IMG/VR virus record: IMGVR_UViG_3300020034_000011
Origin: an uncultured virus (IMG/VR IMGVR_UViG_3300020034_000011)
Lineage: Duplodnaviria; Heunggongvirae; Uroviricota; Caudoviricetes
Reading direction: 5' to 3' (one strand)
Length of the DNA stretch: 64,000 nt
Within the stretch, counting starts at the first letter, position 1. Each line of letters begins with the position of its first letter. This document shows positions 2,283 through 64,000 of this stretch, one piece after another. Under the pieces are notes generated by a model. It made no database searches, was not told where the DNA came from, and saw only the letters and a list, made by a program, of their open reading frames with translations. A program made the translations under genes and the position numbers.

Positions 2283-2315
2283 CGAGGGGGAGAGTTTTCT
2301 CCCCTTCTCTTTTTT
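2283..2315 (+). terminator. intrinsic terminator
   Basis: GGGGAGA/TCTCCCC stem followed by a T tract, directly after the endolysin. Confidence 0.7.
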
Positions 2316-2362
2316 GCCTGACATCTAGACAAACGCAGTACAATCCCTAGGAGACGATCCAT

Positions 2363-2827: not shown

Positions 2828-2837
2828 TTGAAGTACT

Positions 2838-3020: not shown

Positions 3021-3050
3021 CCTTTATTCGAATGCTAAAGGAGATGTGGA

Positions 3051-3467: not shown

Positions 3468-3475
3468 GAGGATGG

Positions 3476-3784: not shown

Positions 3785-3786
3785 TC

Positions 3787-4341
3787 ATGAGTCTTCAGAC
3801 ACGCCTCTCGGACCTGATTACAGCGGTCGGGACCGACGTCAAGCAGCTTCGAACCTGGGTCACCGGCTCATCCTCAGGCAATCTCACCGGCCTTACCACC
3901 ACAGTAAAGACCGACTTGGTCTCGGCAGTCAACGAGGTCAACGCAAAGCCGGGCGAGGCCGACGCTTCCGTTACGGTCAAGGGCATTATTGAGATCGCCA
4001 CTCTGGCTGAGGTGACGACGGGTACCGATACGGTGCGCGCAGTCACACCGCAAGGAGTACGACAGGAACGCACAGCACTCAAAGCCGAGATCCTCGGTGC
4101 CGGTGTTCCTGCAGCGTTGGACACACTGGATGAGCTGGCGGCAGCTCTGGCTGACGATGCCGCATTTTCTGCCACGATCACGACGGCGCTGGGTAACCGT
4201 GTCCGAACCGACACAGCCGCACAAGGTTTGACCGGACCTCAGCAGGTCAACGCGCGCACGAACATCCTTGCGCAAGACTCGGCCTCGATCGGTAATGCTG
4301 ACATCGACCTCGCTGCGCTTTATGTCGTAGCGAAGACGTGA
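3787..4341 (+). CDS. tail fibre-related protein
   Basis: KTDLVSAVNE, ASVTVKGIIEIAT and PAALDTLDELAAAL fibre motifs. Confidence 0.7.
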   Translation: MSLQTRLSDLITAVGTDVKQLRTWVTGSSSGNLTGLTTTVKTDLVSAVNEVNAKPGEADASVTVKGIIEIATLAEVTTGTDTVRAVTPQGVRQERTALKAEILGAGVPAALDTLDELAAALADDAAFSATITTALGNRVRTDTAAQGLTGPQQVNARTNILAQDSASIGNADIDLAALYVVAKT

Positions 4342-5690
4342 GTCTGCAGACACGTCTCGCTGCTCTCATTACAGCCGTCGGGGCGGACATCAAAGATCTG
4401 AAGTCCAAGACGACGCTGCTTTCGTCTTTGCCGATTGAGAACTGGCACTTTGTCGGCGGTGCTGGCGAACCCGCGTTCCAGAACAGCTGGTCCAATCTTG
4501 ATGCAACGAGAACAGCGCGATTCAAGAAGTATCCAGATGGTCGCGTTCGGCTGCAAGGATTCATCAAGACCACGGGCGCGTTGAGCACTGCCGCCTTTCA
4601 GTTGCCGGTCGGTTATCGACCATCAGTTGAAGTCGACTTTCCCGCTCTTTCGAATGGCGCATTTGGGAACGTTGTTGTCTCTGACGTTGGTAATGTGATC
4701 CCTAATGTCGGAAGCGCGACTTACGTCTGTTTGGATGGAGTTGAGTTTGACACAGGGATCTCGAGTGTCGCGCCAATCTTGGTGACCAACGTCACTCAAG
4801 AAGGCTGGCATGTCATTGGCGTGGCGGGTGAACCGGCGTTCAAGAATAGCTGGGTTGCCGAAGTTGGCGGACCTCCACCACGGTTCAAGAAAGATCCGGC
4901 TGGGGTAGTCGAGGTCCAAGGTTGGTTGAAGACTGGTACCAACAGTGTAGCGTTTACGCTTCCGGCGGGTTATCGACCTGATACAGATCTTCTAATCCCG
5001 ATCCTCATCACAAGTGGCGCTGCTGGTGGTTACATTCGCATCTTCACAAACGGTGATGTGAACATCACAAACCCAGGTGGCGTGGGCGCTTTCTTGGGTG
5101 GTATCAGCTTTCCCACAACGCAAACTACCTTCCCGGCCGCTAAGACGGACATCCCCACGGTCACGACCTTGCCATTAGGGCCGACCGATGGCGACGAGAT
5201 CTACTTCCAGACGGCGGCGATGAAGGTCGACGGCATCAAGTGGCACTTGCAGTATGATGCCAGCGCTCCAGGACTGTACAAGTGGATCTTCCTGGGCGGA
5301 GCCGAGTTGACCAATTATGCGGCCACCGGCGAGACGATCGCCAACACCTCTAATGCCGCGGTCGATCTGACGGCCACCGGAGCAGTACCTGTGGTCTTGC
5401 CTTTGGCTGGGGACTACCACATCGAAGGTGCGTTCACCTTGAACCCGAGCTCAGGCAACGTTCAAGTGAACATCCGGGCTTACCCTGGAATCAATGGTAG
5501 TGGTGGAGTCGCATTCACCGCAGTGCAAAGTTGGATCGGTAGCGCTCCGTATGGTTCTCTCCTTTCGTCAGGAAGGCAGCGAATCCAAGCATTGGCGGCT
5601 GGGACCATTCGACTTCGAGGAAGTACCAACTCTAACGCCGTGGTGCTTCTCACCTCGTGGCTTTCAGCTCGACCAATCCGTGTCGGCTAA
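4338..5690 (+). CDS. minor tail / receptor-binding protein
   Basis: two internal repeats WH.(V/I)G.AGEPAF.NSW...F.LP.GYRP. Confidence 0.7.
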   Translation: MSLQTRLAALITAVGADIKDLKSKTTLLSSLPIENWHFVGGAGEPAFQNSWSNLDATRTARFKKYPDGRVRLQGFIKTTGALSTAAFQLPVGYRPSVEVDFPALSNGAFGNVVVSDVGNVIPNVGSATYVCLDGVEFDTGISSVAPILVTNVTQEGWHVIGVAGEPAFKNSWVAEVGGPPPRFKKDPAGVVEVQGWLKTGTNSVAFTLPAGYRPDTDLLIPILITSGAAGGYIRIFTNGDVNITNPGGVGAFLGGISFPTTQTTFPAAKTDIPTVTTLPLGPTDGDEIYFQTAAMKVDGIKWHLQYDASAPGLYKWIFLGGAELTNYAATGETIANTSNAAVDLTATGAVPVVLPLAGDYHIEGAFTLNPSSGNVQVNIRAYPGINGSGGVAFTAVQSWIGSAPYGSLLSSGRQRIQALAAGTIRLRGSTNSNAVVLLTSWLSARPIRVG

Positions 5691-5716
5691 TCAACAACTC
5701 TAACGGGAGGTTCAAA

Positions 5717-7261
5717 ATGGGTAGTAACCTCGTCATCGTGGCCATCCCCGATGAGGATGATCGGGCCTACAAGCTCTCAAGCGAAAAGATCCCGCATCTC
5801 ACCTTGATGTTCTTGGGTGATTCGGACAAGGTCCAGAACATCGACAAGATCGTGCAGTTCGTGGAGCACGCTGCCAGCCAGACGCTGAAGCGCTTCTACC
5901 TTCCGGTGGATCGCCGAGACAAGATCGGTGACAACGACGCTGACGTGCTGCTCTTCAAGGTGCGCAAGCGCTATGACGGCCAAGCACTTCGGGATTTTCG
6001 CACCGCGTTGCTGCAGGACCCCAACATCAAGACGGCGTATGACTCCGCCGAGCAGCATGAGGGTCCGTGGGTCCCGCATCTCACGATGGGGTATCCGGAG
6101 TCCCCGGCCAAGAAGGACGAGTCCGACAATGAATTCGGGTTCTACGACGTCCGCTTCGTCAAGATCGCGGTTTGGGTCGACGACTACGACGGTCCCGAGT
6201 TCCTGCTCAAGGACTGGGACGACGAGGAAGATCTCCACGGGTCGGTCTACGACACCCCGTTGGCGGCTTGGAGCGGAATGGCTCAGCGTGGTCAGTCGGC
6301 TGTTGCCGAGTTGTTTGACGATGGTTTGGAGCATCACGGCGTCAAGGGCATGAAGTGGGGTGTCCGGAAGGCCGCCTCCAAGACGGGCGATCACCTCAAG
6401 GACGCGAACTTCCGTCGAAAGGCCAACAACCTGGACACGGTCACGCAGCTCGTCAATGAGGCGAGTACGAAGACGAAGAACCAGGACCTCCCCAAGATCA
6501 ACGCCAAGCACAAGGAGTTGGGAGCGAAGGTTTCCAAGACTCCGCATCTCGTTGGCGTGTCGCGAGTCCCGGCACAGAAGGCATACCGCGACGCAGTTCG
6601 TGCCGCCTACCTCAAGCGACTTCACGAAGTGGCTGAGACGAAGACGAGCAGCACCGGGAACAAGAAGTACACCATCGACGCCAAGAGCGCTACGCGGTGG
6701 AAGGTTCGGGTCAAGGATGTCGAGCATGCCGCTGGCGACTTTGAGATCGAGCTCATCCTTGATGACGACGGCTACATCAAGGACTTCGCCATGGTGGAGG
6801 ACTCGTTGGAGCATTCGATGACCGTCGCCGAGTGTGGCATGACGTTTATCGAGGGTTTTCTCGGCGATGGCACGCTCGCGCACTCTGGTGTCAAGGGCAT
6901 GAAGTGGGGTGTCCGGAAGGATCCTCCGTCGGCGGTGGCCGCCACGGCTACCTCACGCGTCCCGCACGGGAACGCGCGCAAGACCAAGATCGACACCGAG
7001 GGTGGTGAAAACCATCCGGCGCATTCAGATGCCATCAAGGTGGCCGAAGCCAAGACCAAGCTCCGCAAGAGCGGTCCCGCGGCGCTCTCCAACAACGAGC
7101 TTCGCGAAGTGGCCAATCGAGTTCAGCTCGAGCAGCAGGTGAAGCAACTGGTGCAGCCTGCAGGCAAGAAGTTCGTCAACAACCTGCTCCGCAACCAGGG
7201 CACTCAGACCGCCAATTCGGTGGCCAGCAAGCAGATCAAGAGGAAGTTCGCCCTGGCGTAG
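5717..7261 (+). CDS. 2H phosphoesterase (2'-5' RNA ligase/Acb1-like) fused to HxGVKGMKWG-repeat region
   Basis: two HxT motifs (IPHLTL, VPHLTM); two H(H/S)GVKGMKWGVRK motifs; start reassigned to ATG 5717 after GGGAGG. Confidence 0.75.
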   Translation: MGSNLVIVAIPDEDDRAYKLSSEKIPHLTLMFLGDSDKVQNIDKIVQFVEHAASQTLKRFYLPVDRRDKIGDNDADVLLFKVRKRYDGQALRDFRTALLQDPNIKTAYDSAEQHEGPWVPHLTMGYPESPAKKDESDNEFGFYDVRFVKIAVWVDDYDGPEFLLKDWDDEEDLHGSVYDTPLAAWSGMAQRGQSAVAELFDDGLEHHGVKGMKWGVRKAASKTGDHLKDANFRRKANNLDTVTQLVNEASTKTKNQDLPKINAKHKELGAKVSKTPHLVGVSRVPAQKAYRDAVRAAYLKRLHEVAETKTSSTGNKKYTIDAKSATRWKVRVKDVEHAAGDFEIELILDDDGYIKDFAMVEDSLEHSMTVAECGMTFIEGFLGDGTLAHSGVKGMKWGVRKDPPSAVAATATSRVPHGNARKTKIDTEGGENHPAHSDAIKVAEAKTKLRKSGPAALSNNELREVANRVQLEQQVKQLVQPAGKKFVNNLLRNQGTQTANSVASKQIKRKFALA

Positions 7262-7279
7262 AAGAGAGGAGGCGGCATC

Positions 7280-9046: not shown

Positions 9047-9068
9047 TGAGAAGAAAGGAGGAGAGCTG

Positions 9069-10427
9069 ATGGCCTCAGTTGGCGCGCGACTGCAACATGC
9101 GTGGAACGCCTTCACCAACAGTGACGACGCGAACAATCGTCCAAGGTCCGGCGAGTCTTACGGCGGCAGCATCGGTAGTGGGCGCCCAGACCGTGTCCCT
9201 CTTCGGTTCTCGTTCAACGAGAGAACCCTTATTTCCTCGATCTACACCCGGATCGGGATCGACGCGGCTGCTGTCCCCATGATCCATTGTCGTAAGGATG
9301 ACCGAGATCGTTACGTGGACACCATCGACAGTGGTCTGAATCGCTGTTTGACGCTGGAAGCTAACCTCGATCAAGGCGCGCGTGCTTTCCGCCAGGATGT
9401 CGTCACCACGATCCTCGACGACGGTGTCGCAGCGATCGTTCCGGTGGATACAACCATCTCGCCCGAGGATACGGGTGGATACGACATCAAGACCCTTCGA
9501 GTGGGTCGGATCGTGCAGTGGTTCCCCGAACATATTCGGGTGAGCCTCTACAACCAGGCACGAGGCATGCGTGAAGAGATCACGCTTCCCAAGAAGATGG
9601 TGGCTATCATCGAGAACCCGCTCTATGCGGTGATGAATGAGCCCAACTCGACCCTTCAGCGACTGGTCATCAACCTTGGTCTTCTGGACGCGGTGAACAA
9701 TCAGTCCGCTTCCGGTAAGCTCGACATCCTTATTCAGCTTCCGTATGCGATCAAGACGGAAGCCAAGCGTCAGCAGGCAGAGCAACGGCGCAAGGACATC
9801 GAGTTCCAGCTTTCGGGCAGTAAGTATGGCATCGGCTACATCGATGCCACAGAGAAGATCAATCAGCTCAATCGCCCGGCTGAGAACAACTTGATGGCTC
9901 AGGTCACATGGCTGACCGAACAGCTGTATGTGCAGCTCGGTCTGACGCCTGAGATCGTCAACGGCACGGCCGACGAGAAGACCATGAAGAACTACTACGC
10001 TCGCACCATCGAGCCGATTCTGGACTCCATCGTCGAGGCCTATACCCGTACATTTCTTACCCAGACCGCTCGCACGCAGGGTCAATGGGTCATGTATTTC
10101 CGTGACCCCTTCAAGTTTGTTCCGATCGGTGGCGAAGGCGGCATTGCCGATATCGCCGACAAGTTCTCTCGTAACGAGATCGTCTCGTCCAACGAGATCC
10201 GCCAAGCCATCGGAATGCGACCGCGGCCTGAAGCCAAGGCTGACGCGCTCATCAACTCCAACATGCCTCAGGGTAAGACCGGAGTTGACATCGGTAATGG
10301 GAAAACCGGCTTTGATGCTGAGGCGACAGCAGAAGAGGTCCCTGCGGACCCGGCAGCTGCCGCCATGATCGAACAGTTGGCGAAGACCCATACCGAGGTA
10401 GATGCCGCCTTGGCCGGGGGTGGTTGA
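9069..10427 (+). CDS. portal protein
   Basis: follows terL; about 452 aa; C-terminal SSNEIRQAIG motif; start ATG 9069 after AGGAGGAG. Confidence 0.88.
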   Translation: MASVGARLQHAWNAFTNSDDANNRPRSGESYGGSIGSGRPDRVPLRFSFNERTLISSIYTRIGIDAAAVPMIHCRKDDRDRYVDTIDSGLNRCLTLEANLDQGARAFRQDVVTTILDDGVAAIVPVDTTISPEDTGGYDIKTLRVGRIVQWFPEHIRVSLYNQARGMREEITLPKKMVAIIENPLYAVMNEPNSTLQRLVINLGLLDAVNNQSASGKLDILIQLPYAIKTEAKRQQAEQRRKDIEFQLSGSKYGIGYIDATEKINQLNRPAENNLMAQVTWLTEQLYVQLGLTPEIVNGTADEKTMKNYYARTIEPILDSIVEAYTRTFLTQTARTQGQWVMYFRDPFKFVPIGGEGGIADIADKFSRNEIVSSNEIRQAIGMRPRPEAKADALINSNMPQGKTGVDIGNGKTGFDAEATAEEVPADPAAAAMIEQLAKTHTEVDAALAGGG

Positions 10428-10903
10428 TGAGGACTCCTACGGAGTACGAGATCGACCGACTGATGCACAGCTTGATTCCGGTGGTCAAGAAGCCGAAGAA
10501 GGCTGCTATCCCGCCTCCACCCAAGCCGATTGCCAGCACGACATCCACGGATGCTCGAGCTGAGCAGCGTAAGACCCTTGCCAAGTTGATTCAGAGGTTG
10601 GAGCAGAAGCTTGCGAAACTGAACGCGCTCATCAAAGAGCGGGAACAGGAAGCCGCTTCGGTCAACCACTCGGCCATGGCCAAGAAAGAGCGGAAAGCCA
10701 AAGAGAACACTACGGCTAAAGCCGCTGCTAAGCAGGCCGAGATCGATCGAAACAACAAGAAGATCATCGATCGAAATCGAGAGCCCAAGACCAAGCTAAA
10801 GGTCAAAGTCACCAAGCAACCAACGGTGGCTGAGCTCAAGGTTTTGGCGACGCGAGTCAAGGGTCAGATCGCAATCGCCAAGCAGAAGTTAGCTGCGCTC
10901 TAA
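10424..10903 (+). CDS. Lys-rich coiled-coil protein
   Basis: 159 aa between portal and capsid genes; LMH motif near the N-terminus. Confidence 0.6.
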   Translation: MMRTPTEYEIDRLMHSLIPVVKKPKKAAIPPPPKPIASTTSTDARAEQRKTLAKLIQRLEQKLAKLNALIKEREQEAASVNHSAMAKKERKAKENTTAKAAAKQAEIDRNNKKIIDRNREPKTKLKVKVTKQPTVAELKVLATRVKGQIAIAKQKLAAL

Positions 10904-10942
10904 GAGCGCCGAAGATCCAAACGGACGAAAGGAACAGTCAAA

Positions 10943-13042
10943 ATGGGAGCCACTCCCCGACTGAACTTCGGTGACTCTTCGCCGGAGAACAGCTTGATGC
11001 ATTCGGATGACGCTGTCGCGCCAGTGGTTGGCATGCGAGAGCCTGACTTCAGTGGTTGGGCGTCGAAGTACGGAATCAGGTGCACCGATGGGCGCACCAT
11101 CGAGCCGGGTACGTTCGAGCATCAGGATTCCGAGCGCTTGCCGCTGGTTTGGCATCACGGTCACTCCTCGGTCGACAACATCCTCGGACACGTCATCATC
11201 GAGCACCGTGATGAAGGCCCGTACTGCTTCGGGTACTTCAACGAGACGACGCAGGGCAAGAGCGCGAAGCTCATGGTGGAGCATGGAGACATCGACAAGC
11301 TCTCCATTTTCGCCAATGGGATCGTCGAGAAGATGAAGAAGGTTTCACACGCCTTCATGCGCGAGGTCTCGTTGGTCATCGCTGGCGCCAACTCAGGCGC
11401 AATCATCGACAACATCACTGTCGCGCATAGCGATGGGGAAGTCGACATCCACGCCGATGAGGCGATCATCTACACCGGCCTCACGCTGGAGCACGGCGTT
11501 GCTTCCGCGAAGGCGGCACCGGTCGCTCGGACCACCGACGAGCCCGTGGCCACTGACGCAACCATCGAAGAGGTCTTTGGGACCTTCTCCGATGATCAGA
11601 AGGAAGTCGTCCACTTGATGGTCGGTGCCGCGCTCGAGAGTGCCGCAACCCCCAGCGACGACAGCACCGACACCACGACCGATACCTCCGATCCGGAGAA
11701 GGTCATCACCCACGAGGATGAGGATTCGACCGAGATGACGAACGTGTTCGAGAAGAACAAGGGCAAGATTGGCGGAGACGAGCCCGAGACCATCACGCTG
11801 TCGCATGACGCGATGGGGGCGATCGGCGAGGCCGCCAAGAAGACCGGCTCCTACAAGGACGCCGTCGTGGAGTACGCGTTCAAGCACGGCATCGAGAACA
11901 TCGATGCGCTGTTCCCGGACGCGCGGAACATCACCGAGACCCCCGAGTGGGACAAGCGCCGCACCGAATGGGTCGGCGAGGTCCTGGGCAAGGTTCGCAA
12001 GAGCCCGTTCTCGCGGATCAAGTCGCTGGTGGCCAACATCACCCACCCCGAGGCCCGCGCCCGCGGTTACATCAAGGGCACGCTGAAGAAGGACGAGTTC
12101 TTCGCTCTGACCAGCCGTGTCACCACGCCTGCGACGGTCTACAAGAAGCAGCGTCTGGACCGTGACGACATCGTCGACATCACGGACTTCGACGTCGTCA
12201 TCTGGCTGAAGGGCGAGATGCGACTGATGCTCGAGGAGGAGATCGCTCGCGCGATCCTCATCGGTGACGGCCGCCTTTCGGACGACGACGACAAGGTCAA
12301 GGACCCGTCCGGCTCCACCGAGGGCGCGGGCATCCGTTCGATCCTGAACGACCACGACCTCTACGCTGCGACGTTCTACGTGGACGTCGACGGTGACCTC
12401 AAGAAGACGGATGTCGTGGATCAGGTCCTGTCCTCGATGCAGTACTTCAAGGGCTCGGGCATCCCGACGTTCTACTCGACGCAGGGCACCATCACGCAGA
12501 TGCTGCTCGCTCGCGACGAGATGGGCCGTCGCTTCTACCGCACCGCCACGGAGCTGGCCTCCGAGCTGGGCGTCGACAAGTGCGTCGCCGTCGAGCCGAT
12601 GGAAGACGAGCCCGACCTGGTCGGCATCATCGTCAACCTGCAGGACTACACCCTCGGCGCCGATCGCGGTGGCGAGACCTCGATGTTCGATGACTTCGAC
12701 ATCGACTACAACCAGTACAAGTACCTGATCGAGACCCGCGTCTCCGGCGCGCTCACCAAGATCCGCTCGGCGATCATCGTCAAGCAGGCTGGCAACGGCA
12801 TCACGCTCGTCGCCCCGACCGAGCCCACGTTCGATCCGGCAACGTCGGAGATCACGATCCACGACACGGTGGGCGTCACCTTCCGTCGCGGCGACAACAA
12901 CGCGGCTGTCACCAACGGCGGCTCGCCGTACACGGTCGCCGAGGGCGTCGACCTGAAGATCTACGCTGTCGCCAACGGCGGCTACATCCTCAAGAACAAC
13001 GTCGAGGATGAGTGGACGTACCGCGGCACCGAGGGCAGCTAG
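10943..13042 (+). CDS. prohead protease-scaffold-major capsid fusion with C-terminal Ig-like domain
   Basis: DFSGWASKY/PLVWHH/EVSLV HK97-like protease region, then capsid region ending YLIETRVSGAL. Confidence 0.88.
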   Translation: MGATPRLNFGDSSPENSLMHSDDAVAPVVGMREPDFSGWASKYGIRCTDGRTIEPGTFEHQDSERLPLVWHHGHSSVDNILGHVIIEHRDEGPYCFGYFNETTQGKSAKLMVEHGDIDKLSIFANGIVEKMKKVSHAFMREVSLVIAGANSGAIIDNITVAHSDGEVDIHADEAIIYTGLTLEHGVASAKAAPVARTTDEPVATDATIEEVFGTFSDDQKEVVHLMVGAALESAATPSDDSTDTTTDTSDPEKVITHEDEDSTEMTNVFEKNKGKIGGDEPETITLSHDAMGAIGEAAKKTGSYKDAVVEYAFKHGIENIDALFPDARNITETPEWDKRRTEWVGEVLGKVRKSPFSRIKSLVANITHPEARARGYIKGTLKKDEFFALTSRVTTPATVYKKQRLDRDDIVDITDFDVVIWLKGEMRLMLEEEIARAILIGDGRLSDDDDKVKDPSGSTEGAGIRSILNDHDLYAATFYVDVDGDLKKTDVVDQVLSSMQYFKGSGIPTFYSTQGTITQMLLARDEMGRRFYRTATELASELGVDKCVAVEPMEDEPDLVGIIVNLQDYTLGADRGGETSMFDDFDIDYNQYKYLIETRVSGALTKIRSAIIVKQAGNGITLVAPTEPTFDPATSEITIHDTVGVTFRRGDNNAAVTNGGSPYTVAEGVDLKIYAVANGGYILKNNVEDEWTYRGTEGS

Positions 13043-13062
13043 TCGTTACTAGCTGATACCTG

Positions 13063-13389
13063 ATGGCGAAGTTTCACGGCAAGGTCGGATACGCGAACCA
13101 GCCCACTGAAACTGCACCTGGCGTGCACGAGGAACCCATCACGGAACGAACCTATTCTGGCGACGTCGTTCAAAATAGGAGACAGCTTCGTGACGGTGAC
13201 CGGGTAATTCCGGGCACCACCCTCAGTAATTCGATCAGCATCGTGGCCGATGCATACGCTCGTGACCATTTCTTCGCCATCCGTTATGTGGAGTGGGCGG
13301 GGGTTCTCTGGACAGTGCCTGATGTGGAAGTCCAGACCCCCCGCCTTCTCCTTCGTTTGGGGGAGGTTTACAATGGCCCAACGGCTTGA
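13063..13389 (+). CDS. head-to-tail stopper/closure protein
   Basis: 108 aa beta-rich protein, synteny after capsid. Confidence 0.65.
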   Translation: MAKFHGKVGYANQPTETAPGVHEEPITERTYSGDVVQNRRQLRDGDRVIPGTTLSNSISIVADAYARDHFFAIRYVEWAGVLWTVPDVEVQTPRLLLRLGEVYNGPTA

Positions 13390-13672
13390 CCTCCAAGTCC
13401 TCCTTGAGGACATCACAGAGCACGTTTATTACCAGCAACCGACCGATACTCAGATGCAGTACCCCTGCATCCTATACGAACGAGATGCCTCCTGGTCGGA
13501 GCACGCTGACAATCGGCCCTACGCACGCATGAAGCGGTATCAGGTGACGGTCGTTGACCGTAACCCCGACAGCGAACTGCCAGACATTGTGGAAGAACTT
13601 AGGTTCTGCTCATTCGATCGCTCATTCAGAGCGGACGGATTGAACCACTTTGTCTTCAATCTCTTTTTCTGA
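13373..13672 (+). CDS. tail terminator protein
   Basis: VYYQQP...YPCILY motif; immediately precedes major tail; start ATG 13373. Confidence 0.7.
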   Translation: MAQRLDLQVLLEDITEHVYYQQPTDTQMQYPCILYERDASWSEHADNRPYARMKRYQVTVVDRNPDSELPDIVEELRFCSFDRSFRADGLNHFVFNLFF

Positions 13673-13688
13673 AACGGAGTAAAACAAC

Positions 13689-14576
13689 ATGACGAAGCTT
13701 GCATGGGACCTCGTCGGCGAGCGTCAGTACGAGACCGGCGTCGACCACGGCGTCCTTTACCTGCCGGACAACACCGGCGCTTACGTCGAGGGTCACGCTT
13801 GGAATGGTCTGACGACCGTTACCGAGTCGCCTTCCGGCGCTGAGTCCAACCCGCAGTACGCAGACAACATCAAGTACCTCAACCTGGTGTCGGCCGAGGA
13901 GTTCGGCGCCACGATCGAGGCGCTCACGTACCCGAAGGCGTTCGAGGAGTGCGACGGGTCGGTCCAGCCTCAGCCGGGGGTTACCCTCGGGCAGCAGGGC
14001 CGCCGGATCTTTGGCCTGTCCTACCGGTCCAAGGTCGGCAACGATCTGGAGGGTGCGGATTTCGGGTACAAGATCCACCTGGTCTACGGCGCTCTCTCGG
14101 CTCCGTCGGAGAAGGCGTACAACACGATCAACGACTCCCCTGAGGCGATCACGTTCTCGTGGGAGATCAGCACGACGCCGGTGGCGGTCGAGGGCTTCAA
14201 GCCGACGGCCCTGCTGACGATCGACTCCACCCAGGTGGATGCCGACGATCTGGCGGCCCTCGAGGAGATCCTCTACGGCACCGAGGTGGACGATCCCCGT
14301 CTGCCGCTGCCTGACGAGGTCATCACGCTGGTTGGTACGGGCACCACCAACGTCGACCTGACGGTTCCGGCCAATCAGCCGACGTTTGTCGCGGCCACGG
14401 GTGTCCTCACCCTCCCGGTCGTCTCGGGTGTCCAGTGGAAGGTCAACGGGGCCAACCGCGCCCCCGGCGCCCAGGCTGCCATCGCGGCAGGCGCTCAGAT
14501 CGAGGTCACGGCCGTTGCCACGGCCGATCACAACCTCCAGGGCGATGACGAGTGGACGTACCGCCGCGACGCATAG
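13689..14576 (+). CDS. major tail protein with C-terminal Ig-like domain
   Basis: WD..GER.YETGVDHGVLY...AWNGLT...YADNIKY tail tube signature. Confidence 0.88.
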   Translation: MTKLAWDLVGERQYETGVDHGVLYLPDNTGAYVEGHAWNGLTTVTESPSGAESNPQYADNIKYLNLVSAEEFGATIEALTYPKAFEECDGSVQPQPGVTLGQQGRRIFGLSYRSKVGNDLEGADFGYKIHLVYGALSAPSEKAYNTINDSPEAITFSWEISTTPVAVEGFKPTALLTIDSTQVDADDLAALEEILYGTEVDDPRLPLPDEVITLVGTGTTNVDLTVPANQPTFVAATGVLTLPVVSGVQWKVNGANRAPGAQAAIAAGAQIEVTAVATADHNLQGDDEWTYRRDA

Positions 14577-29023: not shown

Positions 29024-29055
29024 TCGCGAGCGAATCATCGCTTATAGTGAGACCC
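29024..29055 (+). promoter_or_regulatory. phage promoter-like motif plus TGAGACCC leader
   Basis: TCGCG-N7-CA-N7-TAGTGAGACCC. Confidence 0.75.
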
Positions 29056-29526: not shown

Positions 29527-29558
29527 ACGCGCGAAAAACATCGCTTATAGTGAGACCC
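29527..29558 (+). promoter_or_regulatory. phage promoter-like motif plus TGAGACCC leader
   Basis: ACGCG-N7-CA-N7-TAGTGAGACCC. Confidence 0.75.
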
Positions 29559-29859: not shown

Positions 29860-29891
29860 TCGCGTGTTTTTCATCCCTTGTAATGAGACCC
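29860..29891 (+). promoter_or_regulatory. phage promoter-like motif plus TGAGACCC leader
   Basis: TCGCG-N7-CA-N7-TAATGAGACCC. Confidence 0.75.
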
Positions 29892-30062: not shown

Positions 30063-30094
30063 TCGCGTAGAAAACATAGTCTCTAATGAGACCA
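30063..30094 (+). promoter_or_regulatory. phage promoter-like motif plus TGAGACCA leader
   Basis: TCGCG-N7-CA-N7-TAATGAGACC. Confidence 0.75.
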
Positions 30095-30642: not shown

Positions 30643-32601
30643 TGCATTGGGCAGAGGCGCTTACCATTGCGCGAAACCAGCAAGACCTGTCTTACGACGA
30701 GTGGTGCGGTCTGTATCTCGACCCTCGCCCCGAGACGGTCAATAAGTTCCAGGTCAAGCGCGCATTGCGTGTCGCGCATAGGGTTCTGGTACGCAATGGT
30801 GTCATCGACAAGTCGGTGCGTCTGAGTTACGACGTGTCGTCATGAAGCACCAACACTCAGCGGATGCTACCATCAAGGTGGATATTCCGACACAAGATCT
30901 TGAGAACCTGATCGACAAGGCCACGGACTCCGTGCTTGTGATCATTGTGGCGCTTACCGGCGCAAGCATTCTCAAGTCCATATTTCGAGGTAAGCCATGA
31001 AGTACGCTGCTCTTTTTGCAATGCTTTCCATCGTGGCTGCCCTGGTCGTGTCATTTCCGGCATCGGACACGCCCACGACGTACTACACGACGATGGAACC
31101 GATCAAGCAGACCATCATCCCTCCATGCCGCTGGGATGATCTGTGTAATGGGTATGCCTCCGTCGCTCGGATGGAGGTACACAAGTACGACAGAACGTTT
31201 CTCGATTTTCTCGGGACGGACAAGGAGACCCCATGAGTGAAGACGAAGACCGAGACAAGGTCGCGAAGGACAAGCTTCTGAAGCATCAGGAGCAGATCGA
31301 GATGGCGAAAACCCTGCATACAGCAGGTCATTCCATCGGTAAGATCGCGAAGGTCATGCGAATCAGTCAGAGCACGGTTCGCATTCTGATGGCCAATGTG
31401 AAGGAATGCATCTGGTACACGGGCGAGGACTATGAGCCTCGTACCGATGGTCAGTACGGGTCCAAGCTTGCTGAGATCGAGCCGGGCGAGCTTGTGTTCC
31501 TTGTGCGTAAGCGCGTAGACGATGACTTGGTGCTGGCTGTCCCCAACGGTTGGCTCGGTGACGACAAGAACATCTCAAAGATCATGGTCGGCTACGTGAT
31601 CAACCACGACAATGTTGTGCGCTGCATCCTCAGCGTTGCACAAGAGAACAAGCAGGACGAGTACACGGTGGATTGGGTCTGTCGCAAGCTCGCCCAAGAT
31701 TCAATGGCGTTTCTCACGTGAGCGAGACGGAAGACGGCGACGAGCCAACCAACAAGCAGCTGGCGAACTTCCTGGTGGCCACCCAGCCCATGGTGGAGGG
31801 CGCAGAAGGCCTTCGGCTCATTCCCGACGTTCTTGAGCGAATCCTAGCCGCCAATCCGCATCACCGTGCTGCGGCCCTGAAGCGTCATCGCGAGTTTCAG
31901 GACTCCATTGTGGAAACCACGAAGATGATGCACGACGGGACGCTGCCCTGTCAGTTCCGTCGTACCAATGGACGAATGTGTCCTAATTTCAATAAGCCCG
32001 GAACCTACTACTGTAGGCTCCATCAAGATCCAGAGGAGTAGATTGTGACCGATGTCATTGTAGGGCTACACTCTCTGAACACCGTTCTTCAGGGGGTAGA
32101 GTTCACCAACCCCGCGTTGGCTGATACCCTCCGTGCGGATATCGAGATCGTGTCGCTTTACTCGGCGACCACGATTGATAAAGCCCCGGCTCAGGGTGCC
32201 GCAGGACGTCTACGCCAAGCCGCACTAGAACTAGCTCCTGTACACGCGCGTGTACTAAACGACGCGCTGGATGACCTGGGTTTCGAATGATCACCGGCAT
32301 CACGGTCTTCGACAATTTCTACGAGAGCTTGCGCTGGTCTAATCCCGCTATGCTCGCTCTCATGCACGATGACCTCAAGCATGTCGCGCTTGGCGGGATT
32401 TCTGGAAACCGAGAACTGCATTACTCAGCGGTTATCCGCTTGCGTGAGCGTGCGCAGTCTCTACCCACGCCGATGGCGAAGATCCTTGACCACATCTTGA
32501 CGGTGGATCTGGGATATTCGCTGACGCATCTCGAGCAGGTGCGTCAAACCAGCATCGCCATGAACGGTGCGCGGCGCTCGCGTGAAATTCATGGCGTCTA
32601 A
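30642..32601 (+). other. run of coupled small hypothetical ORFs (30642-30845, 30997-31236, 31718-32041, 32045-32290, 32287-32601)
   Basis: overlapping start/stop codons on + strand; no recognisable domains. Confidence 0.5.
31233..31721 (+). CDS. HTH DNA-binding protein
   Basis: GHSIGKIAKVMRISQSTVRILM helix-turn-helix. Confidence 0.65.
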   Translation: MSEDEDRDKVAKDKLLKHQEQIEMAKTLHTAGHSIGKIAKVMRISQSTVRILMANVKECIWYTGEDYEPRTDGQYGSKLAEIEPGELVFLVRKRVDDDLVLAVPNGWLGDDKNISKIMVGYVINHDNVVRCILSVAQENKQDEYTVDWVCRKLAQDSMAFLT

Positions 32602-32670
32602 TAGAGAGGCTATCCCATCCACCAGGATGCGATATTCGTGAGTTGACGCTTACGAAACGTCCTCTCTCTC
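32578..32670 (+). ncRNA. promoter motif plus ~65-nt three-way-junction RNA
   Basis: TCGCG-N7-CA-N7-TAAT then AGAGAGG/CCTCTCT closing two hairpins; no ORF. Confidence 0.55.
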
Positions 32671-33945: not shown

Positions 33946-34743
33946 ATGCAGATCATCAATGACGTCCGGCAACGAGCACAAGTGTTGCTGCAGGAGAACG
34001 CCACCACGCTGCTGACCGCGGGAGGGGTCGTCGGCACGGTGGCCACAGCGGTGCTCGCTGGTCGGGCGTCGTTCAAGGCGGCGGACATCATCCGTGAGCA
34101 CGAGCTCAACGCCATCCACACCGAGCCGGTCGACGACACCATCGTCGAAGGCACAATGGGCCTGGATCGCAAGGCCAAGGTCCTGCTGGTTGGTCCGCTC
34201 TTCATTCCTCCGGTCCTCACCGGCGGTTTGACGGTCGCCAGTATCGTGCTGGCCAACCGCATGAACGCGCAGAAAGCGGCTGCACTGGCTGCTGCGTACG
34301 GGTTGTCTCAGAAGCAACTCGAGGAGTACAAGAACAAAGTCGCCGACAAGCTGGGTGTCGCCAAGACCCAAAAGCTCGAGGATGAGCTGGCTCAGGATCG
34401 CGTAGATCGCGCAGAGGGGTCTACGCTGGTTATTGTCAGCGATGGCGAAGTGCTCTGCTTTGACGAGCCCAACGGCCGGTTCTTCAAGAGCACGATGCAG
34501 ATGATCGACTCGGCGGTGAATGCCACCAACACGGAGATCTTGCATCACGACCACGCGAGCGCGACGTTCTTCTACGAGGAGCTCGGGCTGCCCGGTACGA
34601 CGTGGACGGACGAGGTTGGCTGGAACACCGACAACCTCGTGGAGCTCAAGAAGTCGACCGTTCTCTCTCCGGAAAAGAAGCCATGCATCGCAATCGACTT
34701 CAAAGTACTCCCGTCGCGAGAGTACATCCGGCCAAGTTACTGA
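33946..34743 (+). CDS. conserved phage membrane-anchored protein (DUF6353-like)
   Basis: ENATTLLTAGGVVG...ALAAAY...FYEELG...VGW; paralog of 39588-40508. Confidence 0.65.
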   Translation: MQIINDVRQRAQVLLQENATTLLTAGGVVGTVATAVLAGRASFKAADIIREHELNAIHTEPVDDTIVEGTMGLDRKAKVLLVGPLFIPPVLTGGLTVASIVLANRMNAQKAAALAAAYGLSQKQLEEYKNKVADKLGVAKTQKLEDELAQDRVDRAEGSTLVIVSDGEVLCFDEPNGRFFKSTMQMIDSAVNATNTEILHHDHASATFFYEELGLPGTTWTDEVGWNTDNLVELKKSTVLSPEKKPCIAIDFKVLPSREYIRPSY

Positions 34744-35466: not shown

Positions 35467-35796
35467 GTGAAGCACGACCGTTTCGAGGACATCCTGGATG
35501 CGCGCCTGAAACGCATCCGGGATGTCCTGGTCGTCAAGACCGAAGAATACGCCACCGACGACCAATTGCACAACATCAGACAAGCAGCGGCTCTACAAGG
35601 CGTCGGCATGCCTCAAGCCGTTGCGGGAATGATGGCGAAACACACCGTCTCGATTTTTACCATGATCGCAGACGGCAAGCCCCACGACGTAACCAAGTGG
35701 GATGAGAAGATCACCGACCACATCGTTTGGCTGATTCTTCTAGAAGCAGCACTCATCGACAACGCCAATCCAGATCAAGGATCCCTCCCTTGCTGA
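35467..35796 (+). CDS. all-alpha NTP pyrophosphohydrolase-like (MazG/DUF1599-type) protein
   Basis: K..EY..DD.LHN...KH...WDEKITD..VWLILL pattern. Confidence 0.55.
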   Translation: MKHDRFEDILDARLKRIRDVLVVKTEEYATDDQLHNIRQAAALQGVGMPQAVAGMMAKHTVSIFTMIADGKPHDVTKWDEKITDHIVWLILLEAALIDNANPDQGSLPC

Positions 35797-36461
35797 AGAA
35801 GAGCATCATCTACACCAATCCGTTCACCCAAGCACAGGTGACCGAGGAGCACTACTTCCATCTTTCCAAGGCCGATGTGGTCGAGATGAACATGGAAGAG
35901 CACAAGGCCACCTATCGGAACAAGGAAGGCGAAGACCTCGAGGGTCTCGAGGCCAAGCTCGCGATGATTTCCGAGTCCGAGGACGCCAAGCAGATCTTGG
36001 CCGAGCTCAAGGACGTCATCCGCCGTGCTTACGGCGTGAAAGACGGCGACCGGTTCATCAAGTCGAAGGACAACTGGGACGCCTTTTCCTCGACGGAGGC
36101 ATATTCTCAGCTGCTCTTCGATCTGTACACGAATGCCACCGAGGCGGGCGAGTTCATGAGCGGGCTGCTCCCGAACAACCTCAGAGCGGAGCTTGCTGCC
36201 GCTGGCGCAACGGGTCCCAGTGGGTCTACGCCAACGCCAAGCGTGGAGGTTCCCGCAGCTCCAACCGAGCCGGAGCTCATCCCGGTCCCGGAAGCTGCGC
36301 CTGAGGAGGCCCCTCCGGCGCCCAGCATGACCGCCGAGCGCAAGGCGGTTCTCGACCTAGCATCGGCAACAAACCCGATCAAGCTCGATCAGGTTGATGT
36401 GGTCGGTGGTGACGCGCAGTACATCCAGGACGGCGTTCGTACGGGCCGCTTCCAGCTGTAG
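35790..36461 (+). CDS. conserved phage protein with Pro-rich tail
   Basis: probable TTG start 35790, LKKSIIYT...EEHYFHLSK, AYG.K...RFIKS...TEAYSQL. Confidence 0.65.
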   Translation: MLKKSIIYTNPFTQAQVTEEHYFHLSKADVVEMNMEEHKATYRNKEGEDLEGLEAKLAMISESEDAKQILAELKDVIRRAYGVKDGDRFIKSKDNWDAFSSTEAYSQLLFDLYTNATEAGEFMSGLLPNNLRAELAAAGATGPSGSTPTPSVEVPAAPTEPELIPVPEAAPEEAPPAPSMTAERKAVLDLASATNPIKLDQVDVVGGDAQYIQDGVRTGRFQL

Positions 36462-36839: not shown

Positions 36840-37083
36840 ACGCGAACAAAGCAGGCTGGTTCGACCTATGCTTATGGCCTAAACATCGTGGGTTGATCAC
36901 CACGGTGCCATGAGCGGGTTTCTGACCAAGTCGAACAATAGACCACGGTACGGTATCTCAATGGCGTCTGAGCACGTCAACGAAAGATCGTGTTCGATGG
37001 AATTGGGGTAAAGGCGCACACCGGTGTATCGTGCATCGCTGCGCCTCGCTCAAATCCCACGTGCCAGCCTGCTTTGTTCGCGT
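36840..37083 (+). ncRNA. ~245-nt structured RNA closed by a perfect 20-bp inverted repeat
   Basis: ACGCGAACAAAGCAGGCTGG (36840-36859) / CCAGCCTGCTTTGTTCGCGT (37064-37083), several inner hairpins, no credible ORF. Confidence 0.6.
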
Positions 37084-37109
37084 AGAATTCACCGATTGTA
37101 ATGAGACCC
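37078..37109 (+). promoter_or_regulatory. phage promoter-like motif plus TGAGACCC leader
   Basis: TCGCG-N7-CA-N7-TAATGAGACCC. Confidence 0.75.
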
Positions 37110-38007: not shown

Positions 38008-38208
38008 ATGAAGTACAGCGCTTGGATGTACGACCCAACGGTCGGCTGGGGTGGCGTCCACCGCGTCACCCTGGATGAGGCGGTCCGAATGTGTCGAGAC
38101 TTCAAGCGTGACTGGGACAACGTCGCCGTAGCGGTGACACTCCACGGCGTTGATCCCGAGCCGTATTTCGCGTTAGCGCTTTCTTTGGATCACTTGTCGC
38201 TCGCGTGA
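38008..38208 (+). CDS. hypothetical protein
   Basis: ATG 38008 after GAAAGG. Confidence 0.5.
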   Translation: MKYSAWMYDPTVGWGGVHRVTLDEAVRMCRDFKRDWDNVAVAVTLHGVDPEPYFALALSLDHLSLA

Positions 38209-38232
38209 GAAACACGGCATATAATGAGACCC
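38201..38232 (+). promoter_or_regulatory. phage promoter-like motif plus TGAGACCC leader
   Basis: TCGCG-N7-CA-N7-TAATGAGACCC. Confidence 0.75.
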
Positions 38233-38481: not shown

Positions 38482-38600
38482 TCGCGCAAAAAACATGCTT
38501 TATAGTGAGAGATAGATAATTGCTGCAGATCCCGAAAGGGCAATCCGTCTACTGGTCGCAGCTTCGCAAAGACTATTACCAGTTTCTATCTTTTTCTTTT
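38482..38600 (+). ncRNA. promoter motif plus ~90-nt structured RNA
   Basis: TCGCG-N7-CA-N7-TAGT; GAGATAGA/TCTATCTT closing stem, GCTGC/GCAGC, CCC-GAAA-GGG, possible ACTGGT/ACCAGT pseudoknot, then T tract. Confidence 0.6.
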
Positions 38601-39587: not shown

Positions 39588-40508
39588 ATGAAGCTCGTTC
39601 CCAACGCGATCGGACGCAAGATCGCCCAGCGAGGACTCCTTGCTTCGGAGAACTCGCCCAAGATCCTGTTCGTGGGCGGGGTCGTCGGCATGCTCGGTTC
39701 GACCGTGCTTGCTTGTCGCTCCACGCTGAAGCTTGAAGAGGTCCTCGACGAAGTCGCGGCCATGAAGAAGAAGTCCGAGAAGGCCAAGCATGTGGTCGAC
39801 AGCGGCCAGGCGGAGGAAGGCACGACGTACACCGAGCAGGAGTACAAGAAGGATCTCGTCCTCATCAACATCAAGGGCTTCGGTAGTGTGGTCCGGCTGT
39901 ATGCGCCTTCGATCCTGCTCGGTGGGTTGTCTATCGCGGCTCTGACCAAGTCGCATAACATCCTGCAAGATCGCACCGTTGCTCTGACCGCGGCTTATGC
40001 CGCTGTGGACACGGCGTTCAAGAACTACCGCGAGCGCGTGATCGAGCGTTTCGGTGAGGATGCCGACCGCGACATGCGCTATGACTCAGAGCAGGTCGAC
40101 GTCGTTGACGACAAGGGCAAGGTCGTCTCGACCACTCGAGTGACAGACGCCCCTGGCTCTGTCTATGCGCGGTTCTATGACGAGTTTTCGTCACGCAACT
40201 GGTCTCCGGATCCAGACATCAACCTGCTGTTCCTCAACAACCAGCAGTGCGTCGTGAACGATCGACTGCGGGCACGTGGGCATCTGGTGCTCAACGACGT
40301 GTTCACCGAGCTTGGTATGGAGCACACCGAGGCGGGCTGCATCGTGGGCTGGCGCTGGAACAAGGATTCCGGTGACGACTACATCGACTTCGGCCACGCC
40401 AATGGCTCGAAGCAGGCCAATGATTTCTTCAACGGCCGTGAGGGCGCAATCCTGCTCGACTTCAACGTCGACGGAGTCATTTTCGACAAGATCGAGGAGG
40501 GTCGATGA
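39588..40508 (+). CDS. conserved phage protein (DUF6353-like paralog)
   Basis: NSPKILFVGGVVG...ALTAAY...LNDVF..LG...VGW...LLDFNVDG. Confidence 0.7.
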   Translation: MKLVPNAIGRKIAQRGLLASENSPKILFVGGVVGMLGSTVLACRSTLKLEEVLDEVAAMKKKSEKAKHVVDSGQAEEGTTYTEQEYKKDLVLINIKGFGSVVRLYAPSILLGGLSIAALTKSHNILQDRTVALTAAYAAVDTAFKNYRERVIERFGEDADRDMRYDSEQVDVVDDKGKVVSTTRVTDAPGSVYARFYDEFSSRNWSPDPDINLLFLNNQQCVVNDRLRARGHLVLNDVFTELGMEHTEAGCIVGWRWNKDSGDDYIDFGHANGSKQANDFFNGREGAILLDFNVDGVIFDKIEEGR

Positions 40509-50745: not shown

Positions 50746-50777
50746 TCGCGGGAATTTCATTGATTGTAATGAGACCC
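50746..50777 (+). promoter_or_regulatory. phage promoter-like motif plus TGAGACCC leader
   Basis: TCGCG-N7-CA-N7-TAATGAGACCC. Confidence 0.75.
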
Positions 50778-62326: not shown

Positions 62327-62382
62327 TCGCGCGTTTTTCGCATGATCTAATAGAAGGGGGAAACATATGCTTTCTTTTTTGC
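62327..62382 (+). promoter_or_regulatory. promoter motif variant followed by a short hairpin and T tract
   Basis: TCGCG-N7-CG-N7-TAATAG, then AGAAGGGGGAAACATATGCTTTCTTTTTT. Confidence 0.55.
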
Positions 62383-62402: not shown

Positions 62403-62714
62403 GTGACCGAAAACGCGTACCAGGCGAAGCTGATCAAGAGACTGCGCCGCATGTTCCCTGGTTGCGAGATCCTCAAGAACGATCCGGGCTACAAACAAGG
62501 CATCTGTGATCTCACGATCCTGTGGGGTGAGTTCTGGGCAATGTTGGAAGTCAAAGCATCTGCTTCTGCGCCAGAGCGACCCAATCAGCCATATTTCGTC
62601 AAGAAGCTCAACGACATGAGCTTCGCTTCGTTCATCTATCCTGAGAACGAGGAGGAGGTGCTCACTGCGCTTCAGGCAGCATTCACATCTCGAAGGGCAG
62701 CATGCGTTTCTTAG
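62403..62714 (+). CDS. VRR-NUC / Holliday-junction resolvase-like nuclease
   Basis: EN.YQ...G..DL......AMLEVK......RPNQ. Confidence 0.75.
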   Translation: MTENAYQAKLIKRLRRMFPGCEILKNDPGYKQGICDLTILWGEFWAMLEVKASASAPERPNQPYFVKKLNDMSFASFIYPENEEEVLTALQAAFTSRRAACVS

Positions 62715-63225
62715 TCCCAGTTCGTATCACTGGATCAACTATGACGAAGAGAAACTCGCCTATCGCTACAAGACACTGCAGGCAGCGATCGAGGGCGTAG
62801 AGCAACACCGGTTCGCAGCGATCGCTATCGAAGAGTGCGTCGTGCAGGACAACGAAACAACCACACTTGGGATGTACATCAATCAGTGCATCCAGTTCAA
62901 GATGGCTTCTGAGATCGTCTTGTTCTACTCACCTAACGCGTTCGGCACAGTGGACGCAATCTCTTTTCGTCACAAGCGTCTGAGGATCAGCGACCTCAAG
63001 ACCGGAGTGACGCGCACATCAGAGCATCAGCTTGAGGTCTATGCTGCGCTCTTCTGCCTCGAATACGAGGTGGACCCGTTCTCCCTACGGGGCATTGAGC
63101 TCCGTATCTATCAGGATAACGCGGTACGCGAGTACCCTGGTGATCCATATAAAATCGTGGGGATCATGGACAAGATCGTGAGATTCAATGCAATTCTCAA
63201 TCAGCTTCGAGAGGAGGTGTCGTGA
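62665..63225 (+). CDS. PD-(D/E)XK (Cas4-like) exonuclease, probable CTG start
   Basis: HAFLSPSSYHWINY N-terminus; FGTVDAI...ISDLKTG...QL.VYA. Confidence 0.75.
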   Translation: MRFRQHSHLEGQHAFLSPSSYHWINYDEEKLAYRYKTLQAAIEGVEQHRFAAIAIEECVVQDNETTTLGMYINQCIQFKMASEIVLFYSPNAFGTVDAISFRHKRLRISDLKTGVTRTSEHQLEVYAALFCLEYEVDPFSLRGIELRIYQDNAVREYPGDPYKIVGIMDKIVRFNAILNQLREEVS

Positions 63226-64000
63226 TGGAGCTAACTGAAGGAGAGTACCTGGCCCATTACGGCATTCTTCGCAAGTCGGGGCGTTATCCTTGGGGATCTG
63301 GAGAGAACCCCCATCAGCGCAGCAAGACGTTTCTCGACATCATCGATCAGCACAGGAAAGACGGGCTGAGCGAAGCTAAGATCGCTGAGCTGTACCAGCC
63401 TGTGGATTCAGAGGGAAGGAAGATCCCTCCGTTCTTCACGACGTCAGATCTTCGTGCTCTGAAGTCGAGAGCTGTGAACCTTCAGAAGCAAGCGCAGATC
63501 CGGGAAGCCACGTCTCTGCGTGAAGACAAGGGCATGAGCCCATCAGCTATTGGTCGACAGATGGGTCTCAACGAGTCGACCGTTCGCTCACTCCTCGAGC
63601 CGGGCCGTCAAGAGAAGCTCGATATCCTGCAGGAAACGGCTAACATGCTCAAGCGTCAGGTTGAGGAGAAGCCGTTCCTTGACGTTGGTGGGCAAACCGA
63701 ACGTGATCTTCCCATCTTCTCCGATATCCCAAACATCGGGATTTCGAAGGACAAGTTCAACACCGCCCTCTCCATGCTCAAGGAAGAGGGATATTCGGTC
63801 CACACGGTTCGGGTTCAGCAGGTCGGTACAGGAGAGTACACCAAGTACCGAGTTCTGGTGAAGCCTGGGGTTACACAGAAGGACGTGTTCCTCAATCGTG
63901 ATCAGATCCGAGTCATCTCTGAGAAATCAGATGATGGTGGTCGTACCTACAACGATCGAGCCCTCAAGCCGCCTCTGAGTATCGACGCCAAGCGCATTGA
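63225..64000 (+). CDS. large HTH-containing protein, truncated by the window end (candidate phage RNA polymerase)
   Basis: appears open to the window end; MELTEGEYLAHYGILRKSGRYPWGSG; HTH GMSPSAIGRQMGLNESTVRSLL; missing from the ORF track because no stop codon. Confidence 0.7.
   Translation, partial: MELTEGEYLAHYGILRKSGRYPWGSGENPHQRSKTFLDIIDQHRKDGLSEAKIAELYQPVDSEGRKIPPFFTTSDLRALKSRAVNLQKQAQIREATSLREDKGMSPSAIGRQMGLNESTVRSLLEPGRQEKLDILQETANMLKRQVEEKPFLDVGGQTERDLPIFSDIPNIGISKDKFNTALSMLKEEGYSVHTVRVQQVGTGEYTKYRVLVKPGVTQKDVFLNRDQIRVISEKSDDGGRTYNDRALKPPLSIDAKRI

Follow-up and report, generated by a model that had tools for sequence, protein, structure and literature searches.

A predicted two-barrel RNA polymerase with a head-type leader, and a recurrent promoter-like element, in an uncultured tailed phage

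The DNA analysed here, called the window, is a stretch of 64,000 nucleotides from an uncultured virus of the Caudoviricetes (IMG/VR record IMGVR_UViG_3300020034_000011). Its right end falls within an open reading frame starting at ATG 63225, which the initial annotation, made from the sequence of the window, described as a truncated protein with an HTH and an N-terminal YLAHYG. The frame is indeed open to the end of the window, and truncation is a property of the window only: in the parental contig (66,393 nt) the gene is complete and encodes a protein of 931 amino acids ending at position 66020. The sequence begins MELTEGEYLAHYGILRKSGRYPWGSG, and YLAHYG occupies residues 8-13, with the L encoded at nt 63249. 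The genes and features at this end of the window are the following.

62403..62714, + strand: small endonuclease (phrog_93), first gene of the operon
62665..63225, + strand: Cas4/PD-(D/E)XK-like exonuclease (phrog_3953)
63225..64000, + strand: predicted single-chain two-barrel RNA polymerase, 5' 259 codons; the remainder extends to contig position 66020
63225..63302, + strand: N-terminal leader, consisting of an acidic stretch, L-A-H (63249-63257) and YG..RKSGRYPWGSG; DUF7211-like peptide
63513..63608, + strand: N-terminal sigma4-like HTH, recognition helix ES[TS]VR

The exonuclease probably starts at CTG 62665, located after GGAGG, a start which agrees with the N-termini of its homologues. The N-terminal HTH of the polymerase (residues 97-128) matches Pfam HTH_23 (E 2.6e-5) and Sigma70_r4 (E 1.4e-4), both slightly below the curated cut-off, and a second HTH is found at about residues 900-924. 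A small acidic ORF (phrog_4303) lies 3' of the polymerase gene, at 6005-6343 of locus L001 (contig positions about 66004-66342); it follows the polymerase in every named relative viewed, and its product is a candidate partner of the enzyme.

Full-length homologues of the protein had been described in the initial annotation as large and carrying a DFDGD motif, in the manner of two-barrel RNA polymerases. The sequence beyond the window agrees with this: downstream of the SGR leader, the protein contains GADFDGD at residues 535-541, D537 being encoded at nt 64833. The genome encodes a single DxDGD-bearing polymerase, with one DxDGD in the matching ORF. The DFDGD at residues 537-541, which has the DxDxD form typical of two-barrel RNA polymerases, is invariant in 147 of 147 aligned homologues, and DxDGD is found in 386 of the 387 homologues collected by searches. 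Residues R294, K304, K336, R486, P488, D537, D539 and D541 are likewise present in 147/147 and D271 in 145/147; all nine are encoded beyond the edge of the 64-kb window. Eight invariant residues of two-barrel polymerases are given in the available text of PMC2919709 (Rpb2 D837, K979 and K987; Rpb1 R446, P448 and D479/481/483), and D271, K304, K336, R486, P488 and D537/539/541 fit them in a mapping based on order, motif and aligned ranges rather than on residue-level superposition.

A structure predicted by AF2 from 80 sequences (pLDDT 89.4; low confidence over the leader, with block pLDDT 44-51 at residues 1-30) was compared to known structures by Foldseek. The top matches were QDE-1 (E 1.3e-9), P74 gp62, gp64 and RDR2; after QDE-1, RDR2 and gp64, the fold matches are large subunits of cellular polymerases. 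Pairwise alignment (VIA) of model residues 247-767 to QDE-1 gave Z 15.6 and rmsd 4.4 over 389 aligned positions, and alignment to gp64 of phage P23-45 gave Z 13.2 and rmsd 4.5 over 354. In the predicted structure, as aligned to QDE-1, two double-psi barrels are contained in one chain. Searches of PDB sequences with the polymerase and its profile returned HTH matches only, and a search of NCBIfam gave nothing above the cut-off. Taken with the motif and the invariant residues, the predicted fold makes it almost certain that the gene product is a two-barrel RNA polymerase, as had been proposed.

The family profile phrog_4291, which matches residues 3-928 with an E value of 0, is labelled 'RNA-dependent RNA polymerase' in PHROGs, and a similar label is used in RefSeq. 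An enzyme copying phage or host RNA would fit the best fold matches, QDE-1 and RDR2, and a weak Pfam RdRP match (E 0.02). The labels, however, rest on homology only, the tested phage enzymes of the clade are DNA-dependent, and the protein has two DNA-binding HTH domains; an RNA template is therefore judged very improbable, and the polymerase is very likely DNA-dependent.

Matches to the polymerase occur in 250 phage records and, in 249 of these, span 80% or more of the protein. The hosts are Arthrobacter (95 records), Gordonia (55), Streptomyces (54), Lactococcus (13) and others. The capsid precursor of the same genome matches 245 records and, since its counts per named host genus equal those of the polymerase, the latter is a core gene of the phage group. 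Identity reaches 55.5% with proteins of cultured phages and is 39% with orf75 of Lactococcus phage 1706. Full-length homology, terminal HTHs and the place before the last ORF assign the protein to PHROG 4291, along with 1706 orf75, FP_oengus AUV56548 and the actinophage 'HTH DNA-binding domain protein' of clusters BI, AM, AU, AW, DJ, CC and EL. These relatives share the gene order (nuclease, exonuclease, polymerase, small ORF, genome end), the two HTHs and the DxDGD. Most of the approximately 250 deposited records carrying the family are labelled 'HTH protein', and AUV56548 is deposited as 'putative RNA polymerase'.

The polymerase call is not new: publications of 2010 and 2021 had already proposed it, and it is among the annotations of both PHROGs and RefSeq. 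In the available text of PMC2919709 the 1706 protein is among five families grouped as YonO-like, and that of the bioRxiv preprint 10.1101/842583 describes the HTH protein of the phage group as a putative RNA polymerase that carries DxDGD and has an HTH at either end. Both propose polymerase activity only; packaging, the His motif described below and the promoter are unmentioned in these texts. A search of the open literature, subscription journals lying outside its scope, found no publication on packaging, cleavage or promoters of the PHROG 4291 family, none mentioning DUF7211, PF23847 or phrog 4291, and no bench test of the family. The accessible parts of PMC13432834, PMC5883640, PMC11965321 and 10.1101/2022.11.23.517428 contain nothing on these three subjects, and the phage names, genera and accessions tried gave no match in those of the PMC10770324 supplements. 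What is added here is converging, indirect evidence on two points: head loading via a protease site of His type, and a promoter private to the phage.

The initial annotation had likened YLAHYG to the LxHxG motif of head-module proteins. The features of the head module relevant to this comparison are listed below, the slash marking the predicted cut.

5657..7261, + strand: head-module protein, 2H phosphoesterase and two DUF7211 tags, with L-x-H at 6326 and 6875
9069..10427, + strand: portal protein with N-terminal L-Q-H/A-W (9090-9104)
10943..13042, + strand: fused prohead protease (S78, residues 36-156), linker and capsid (residues 316-612)
11420, 11486, 11606, 11705 and 11798, + strand: hydrophobic-x-His linker sites within 10943..13042
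11879-11887, + strand: hydrophobic-x-His at the capsid boundary, FKH/GI

The LxHxG tag of the head module is real, since the protein encoded at 5657-7261 contains two DUF7211 copies (E 1.1e-20). Two further hydrophobic-x-His sites are present in it besides the tags; the product is likely a polyprotein including a candidate anti-defence enzyme. The 2H phosphoesterase is a candidate destroyer of nucleotide defence signals. A profile of 10 residues around the tag His, trained solely on head tags of other genomes (16 matches, one of them spurious), was applied to all 100,005 positions of this genome; the polymerase leader takes third place, right after the two true tags, with a score of 17.7 vs 11.5 for the next position. 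The polymerase N-terminus ranks among or right after the true tags in six of the seven genomes tested, the one missed being Arcadia. The polymerase has no match to Pfam DUF7211 (PF23847) at E up to 1, and shares only the first ten positions of the 25-residue DUF7211 peptide, which ends in KWG. The flanks of the leader (acidic, acidic, aromatic, L, x, H, Y, G) are near those of 81 tagged head-module proteins, drawn from 44 of 80 head loci, and a hydrophobic-x-His precedes SGR in 372 of 380 polymerase homologues. The 'tag' is more aptly described as a likely prohead-protease site with a conserved basic peptide after it, and L-A-H at 63249-63257 is accordingly given as a predicted prohead-protease site.

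The same motif was evaluated in 66 protease-capsid precursors (65 from 80 loci, after removal of incomplete and identical ones, plus that of this phage) and 45 terminases. With a residue class, [SAG], picked after the data were seen, hydrophobic-x-H[SAG] occurs per 100 residues 2.38 times in the linker, 0.01 times in the capsid domain, 0.01 in the terminase and 0.16 in the body of the polymerase. A rate of 1.8 is reached in the protease domain too, mostly via conserved His columns. The residue at the capsid boundary is His in 56 of the 66 precursors and Tyr in 10, and is followed by G-I. In the polymerase His is followed by Tyr, which takes this place in just 7% of the linker His sites, and an N-terminal His site is found in 26 of 59 portals only. 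Leader, linker and capsid boundary thus have the motif in common, as expected for substrates of one prohead protease; prohead-protease sites of T4 and SPN3US show a comparable pattern in the available text of PMC7411985. Because the motif fills the linker up to the capsid boundary, hydrophobic-x-His is likely the cut site of the prohead protease.

Additional information comes from homologues of unusual architecture. An N-terminal extension is present in 78 of 387 homologues, a set enriched by a length-limited search and hence not a measure of frequency in the family; the His site ahead of the polymerase is kept in all 78, and 66 of the extensions contain the two HxT/S motifs of 2H phosphoesterases. 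The 2H domains of the extensions resemble that of the 5657-7261 head protein (best E 9e-9; 20 of 94 extensions match). In two proteins, P0323 and P0343, a true DUF7211 tag is followed by an enzyme domain, the leader and then the polymerase. Fusions of 2H domains to portal or MuF proteins are read as injected head cargo in the accessible parts of PMC5512222 and PMC9503650. Three long homologues (P0147, P0157 and P0270) have, in place of the leader, another short tag in common, and P0147 carries the tag-swapped polymerase behind a whole portal domain. The three form one clade (SH-aLRT 99 in a quick tree of 61 chosen rows); each is known from a single sequence, and the portal fusion from one. Searches for the DNA surrounding the tag-swapped forms returned either nothing or ordinary members. 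Two other fusions, P0271 (front of the polymerase and tape measure) and P0272 (DNA polymerase and back of the polymerase), were set aside as probable assembly chimeras, each joining two incomplete domains and known from a single sequence. In P0358, P0370 and their relatives, a cluster of 74 members, a P-loop kinase-like domain is N-terminal of the leader.

The presence of the polymerase in the virion was evaluated from the record of phage 1706 (GenBank EU081845.1), where orf75, although far from the head genes, is labelled 'structural protein'. Eleven ORFs of the record bear this label and four more are named as portal, capsid or tail. In the study of 1706, 15 virion proteins were reportedly found by LC-MS/MS, a number with which the 11 + 4 = 15 labelled ORFs agree. 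A DUF7211-type tag is found in two ORFs of 1706, orf7 and orf75, and both belong to the labelled set. Since orf62 and orf71, which are small, untagged and outside the structural module, are labelled structural as well, the list may include contaminants. Other points count against packaging. The polymerase gene closes the replication half, where it follows an early-type element and is away from the head genes; the phage relatives nearest by fold or family that have been tested are non-virion enzymes, gp64 being undetectable in virions according to the available text of PMC10770324 and YonO transcribing late genes; and FP_oengus, which has an integrase, is a temperate member, so that its induced prophage must start without a virion enzyme. 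On balance, the polymerase is probably present in the virion, the presence of its 1706 homologue being taken from a database label. The proposal that it is packaged and injected has only indirect support, from the 1706 label, the leader profile, the His-motif linker and the fusions.

The enzyme had further been supposed to transcribe from TCGCG promoters. TCGCG by itself is unremarkable, with 104 copies; the proposed reading of such promoters by the enzyme is supported by a fixed spacing, by the position of the sites and by the loss of sigma-A bases in FP_oengus. The pattern CGCR-N7-CR-N5-TNTDRTR, derived from the sites themselves, has 10 copies in the 64-kb window vs 0.30 expected, all on the + strand between 29025 and 62352. 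The ten copies, for which the short form CGC[AG]-N14-TNT[AGT][AG]T is used below, are all located in the non-structural half.

29025..29049, + strand: promoter-like element, CGCG-N14-TATAGT-GAGACCC
29528..29552, + strand: promoter-like element
29861..29885, + strand: promoter-like element (TGTAAT, without A at -11)
30064..30088, + strand: promoter-like element (TCTAAT)
32579..32603, + strand: promoter-like element (TCTAAT)
37079..37103, + strand: promoter-like element (TGTAAT)
38202..38226, + strand: promoter-like element (TATAAT)
38483..38507, + strand: promoter-like element (TATAGT)
50747..50771, + strand: promoter-like element (TGTAAT)
62328..62352, + strand: promoter-like element ahead of the nuclease-exonuclease-polymerase operon

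A degenerate eleventh copy is found at 32674, 95 nt past the 32579 copy. A profile trained on other phages recovers nine of the ten sites, and detects 7 sites in Scap1, 8 in Arcadia, 14 in ReqiPoco6 and 6 in 1706, all on the + strand and outside the structural module (controls gave 0-1 matches; the Scap1 and Arcadia sequences are partial). Scap1, Arcadia, ReqiPoco6 and FP_oengus each have a copy at the position that corresponds to the one in front of the operon. Sufficient DNA upstream of the gene is available for 62 of 80 polymerase loci; in these, 60 profile matches fall in the 403 kb upstream of the gene and none in the 132 kb downstream; there is 1 match in 904 kb of head-tail loci and there are 2 in 731 kb of reverse strand. 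A match within 1.8 kb upstream of the polymerase gene is found in 30 of the 62 loci only; anchoring on the nuclease gene reveals a -10-like core in 49 of 62, three of them seemingly accidental, and the operon copy often has a weak or lost CGC[AG] box while TATAAT is kept.

The spacer is 14 nt in 81 cases, any other length occurring in at most 5, and is fixed across hosts. TATAAT is the commonest -10 (64 of 117 sites), A-11 is present in 74% of the 117 and absent from 6 of the 10 in the window, and an extended TG is found in 5 of 117; TTG[AC]C[AT] at 16-18 nt from the -10 occurs in none. Promoters read by sigma-A have a spacer near 17 nt and conserve T-12, A-11 and T-7, and the element departs from them in its 14-nt spacer, its rare TG and the -10 of FP_oengus. 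In the early region of the latter phage the strict pattern gave no match; de novo analysis revealed the same CGCG and spacer joined to a CTTTAT-type -10, without T-12 and A-11. Its 13 copies all precede the head genes, 11 in 8.4 kb and 2 in the other 50 kb, and one of them fronts the polymerase operon. Because the spacer of 14 and an FP_oengus -10 without T-12 and A-11 are unlike sigma-A, a phage-coded reader is favoured.

The N-terminal HTH of the polymerase is predicted to read the CGC[AG] box by itself, no host sigma factor being needed: it keeps E117 (90%) and R121 (94%) among homologues, and its recognition helix ES[TS]VR is the same in this phage, FP_oengus and 1706. We consider it probable that the polymerase reads the CGC[AG]-N14 elements.

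The elements may be read by a different machinery. The host RNA polymerase, either alone or helped by a phage activator (for instance the small HTH protein encoded at 31233), could recognize the CGC[AG]/TATAAT elements, the phage polymerase being a non-virion enzyme made in the middle period that transcribes the structural genes, as YonO transcribes the late genes of SPbeta as one operon (available text of PMC5467207); the leader would then be vestigial, or the 1706 detection a carry-over. The gene is preceded by an early-type element and followed almost at once by the end of the genome and the structural genes, the 1706 family is grouped with YonO-like proteins (PMC2919709, in the text available), TATAAT is the commonest -10 and a temperate member exists. 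Moreover, host-type promoters show no excess in positions 1-14000 of the window (4 found vs 4.1 expected). The spacer, the CTTTAT -10 of FP_oengus and the scarce TG are nevertheless unlike sigma-A, the leader is kept by nearly all homologues, in one clade a different tag or a portal takes its place, and the 1706 record calls orf75 structural; such a late role is considered unlikely. In the same region, a sigma70-like TTGGAA-N16-TACAAT at 65-92, before the first gene, is not above regional chance, and it is not evident in two relatives.

It is slightly less likely still that the polymerase is packaged and injected as proposed while another phage factor binds the elements, the enzyme acting at other start sites (genome ends, late genes, or primers for replication or DNA entry). 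Evidence of packaging does not identify the target DNA, the equal polymerase and capsid counts per named genus leave no polymerase-less control tying element to gene, and another HTH gene is located among the elements. The latter, 31233-31721, gives a weak match to PHROG 3855, as does the HTH of the polymerase, and pairwise comparison detected no similarity between this small protein and the polymerase, which speaks against this alternative. Also, the ES[TS]VR helix is conserved wherever the CGC[AG] box occurs, and the elements front short non-structural genes and the polymerase's own operon.

The ends of the contig were also inspected. The right end (L001 6350-6394) contains a GC-rich hairpin and CTGCAT, and the left end starts GCCAAAAA (window 1-30). 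Relatives have a 9-nt cos between the corresponding ends, and a 3' overhang at cos is noted in the record of ReqiPoco6; the contig thus resembles a whole cos genome from which the overhang is missing. The right ends of relatives (L002, L004, L005, L007, L014 and L016) carry TCGCA-N14/15-xxGCAT just before cos, an echo of the promoter geometry; the genome studied here has no CGCA there. Elsewhere, the stretches 35727-36461, 33946-34743 and 39588-40508 hold a tail-assembly-chaperone Pfam match far from the tail genes and two DUF6353 paralogues.

Several known systems share part of these properties. YonO of SPbeta is also a single-chain two-barrel siphophage enzyme of about 100 kDa (available text of PMC5467207), placed in the same broad group (PMC2919709); it transcribes late genes, whereas the polymerase described here has a head-type leader, terminal HTHs and elements in the early region. 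Phage P23-45 has a private promoter motif and leaves its late genes to the host enzyme (PMC10770324, in the text available). It encodes two polymerases, the non-virion gp64, which shares the fold, and the tape-measure-fused virion enzyme gp96 (Foldseek E 1.2e-4 to our model), and relies on tape-measure delivery; the present phage has one polymerase, predicted to be a cleaved head cargo. The internal proteins and Alt of T4, whose capsid targeting sequence is cut by gp21, and the ejection proteins of SPN3US bear a short N-terminal propeptide on head cargo, with a motif common to scaffold and capsid (PMC7411985, in the text available). In contrast to these, the predicted cut is after His, the protease is of HK97-type S78 fused to the capsid, and the most conserved peptide lies past the predicted cut and would remain on the cargo. 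The crAss-like phi14:2 gp66 and the virion RNAP of N4, which has a T7 fold, are likewise virion-borne enzymes for early genes. They are much larger proteins, and are absent among the fold matches listed for our model.

The account we prefer, and hold to be somewhat better than an even bet, is that of a packaged, leader-trimmed and injected two-barrel polymerase transcribing the non-structural half from the CGC[AG]-N14 elements. The leader would draw the polymerase into the prohead, where the phage's own prohead protease would trim it after L-A-H; the trimmed enzyme would be injected with the DNA, and would start transcription of the non-structural half at the elements. With an element in front of the operon that encodes it, the enzyme would boost its own production. 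No such element is found at the late structural genes, which would be left to the host polymerase, as in P23-45, or be reached by read-through across the joined ends.

A broader, joint reading is put forward more tentatively, at slightly less than even chance. It would place these phages in a large, cross-phylum family of cos siphophages, estimated at about 4,100 stretches in IMG/VR, in which early transcription depends on a sigma-independent polymerase of 100 kDa that reads a sigma70-look-alike promoter with a spacing of its own through its sigma4-like HTH, and in which a His-specific prohead-protease code both loads the polymerase and cuts cargo polyproteins, the polymerase/2H chain being released inside the capsid.

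If the preferred account holds, these phages would possess a self-sufficient two-barrel transcription machine that is among the smallest of its kind, has a defined promoter and is available in easily grown laboratory phages. DUF7211 would gain a function, prohead-protease specificity a His-specific rule, and two-barrel virion polymerases a third delivery route. The predictions (cut site, promoter bases and HTH residues) are precise enough for direct tests.
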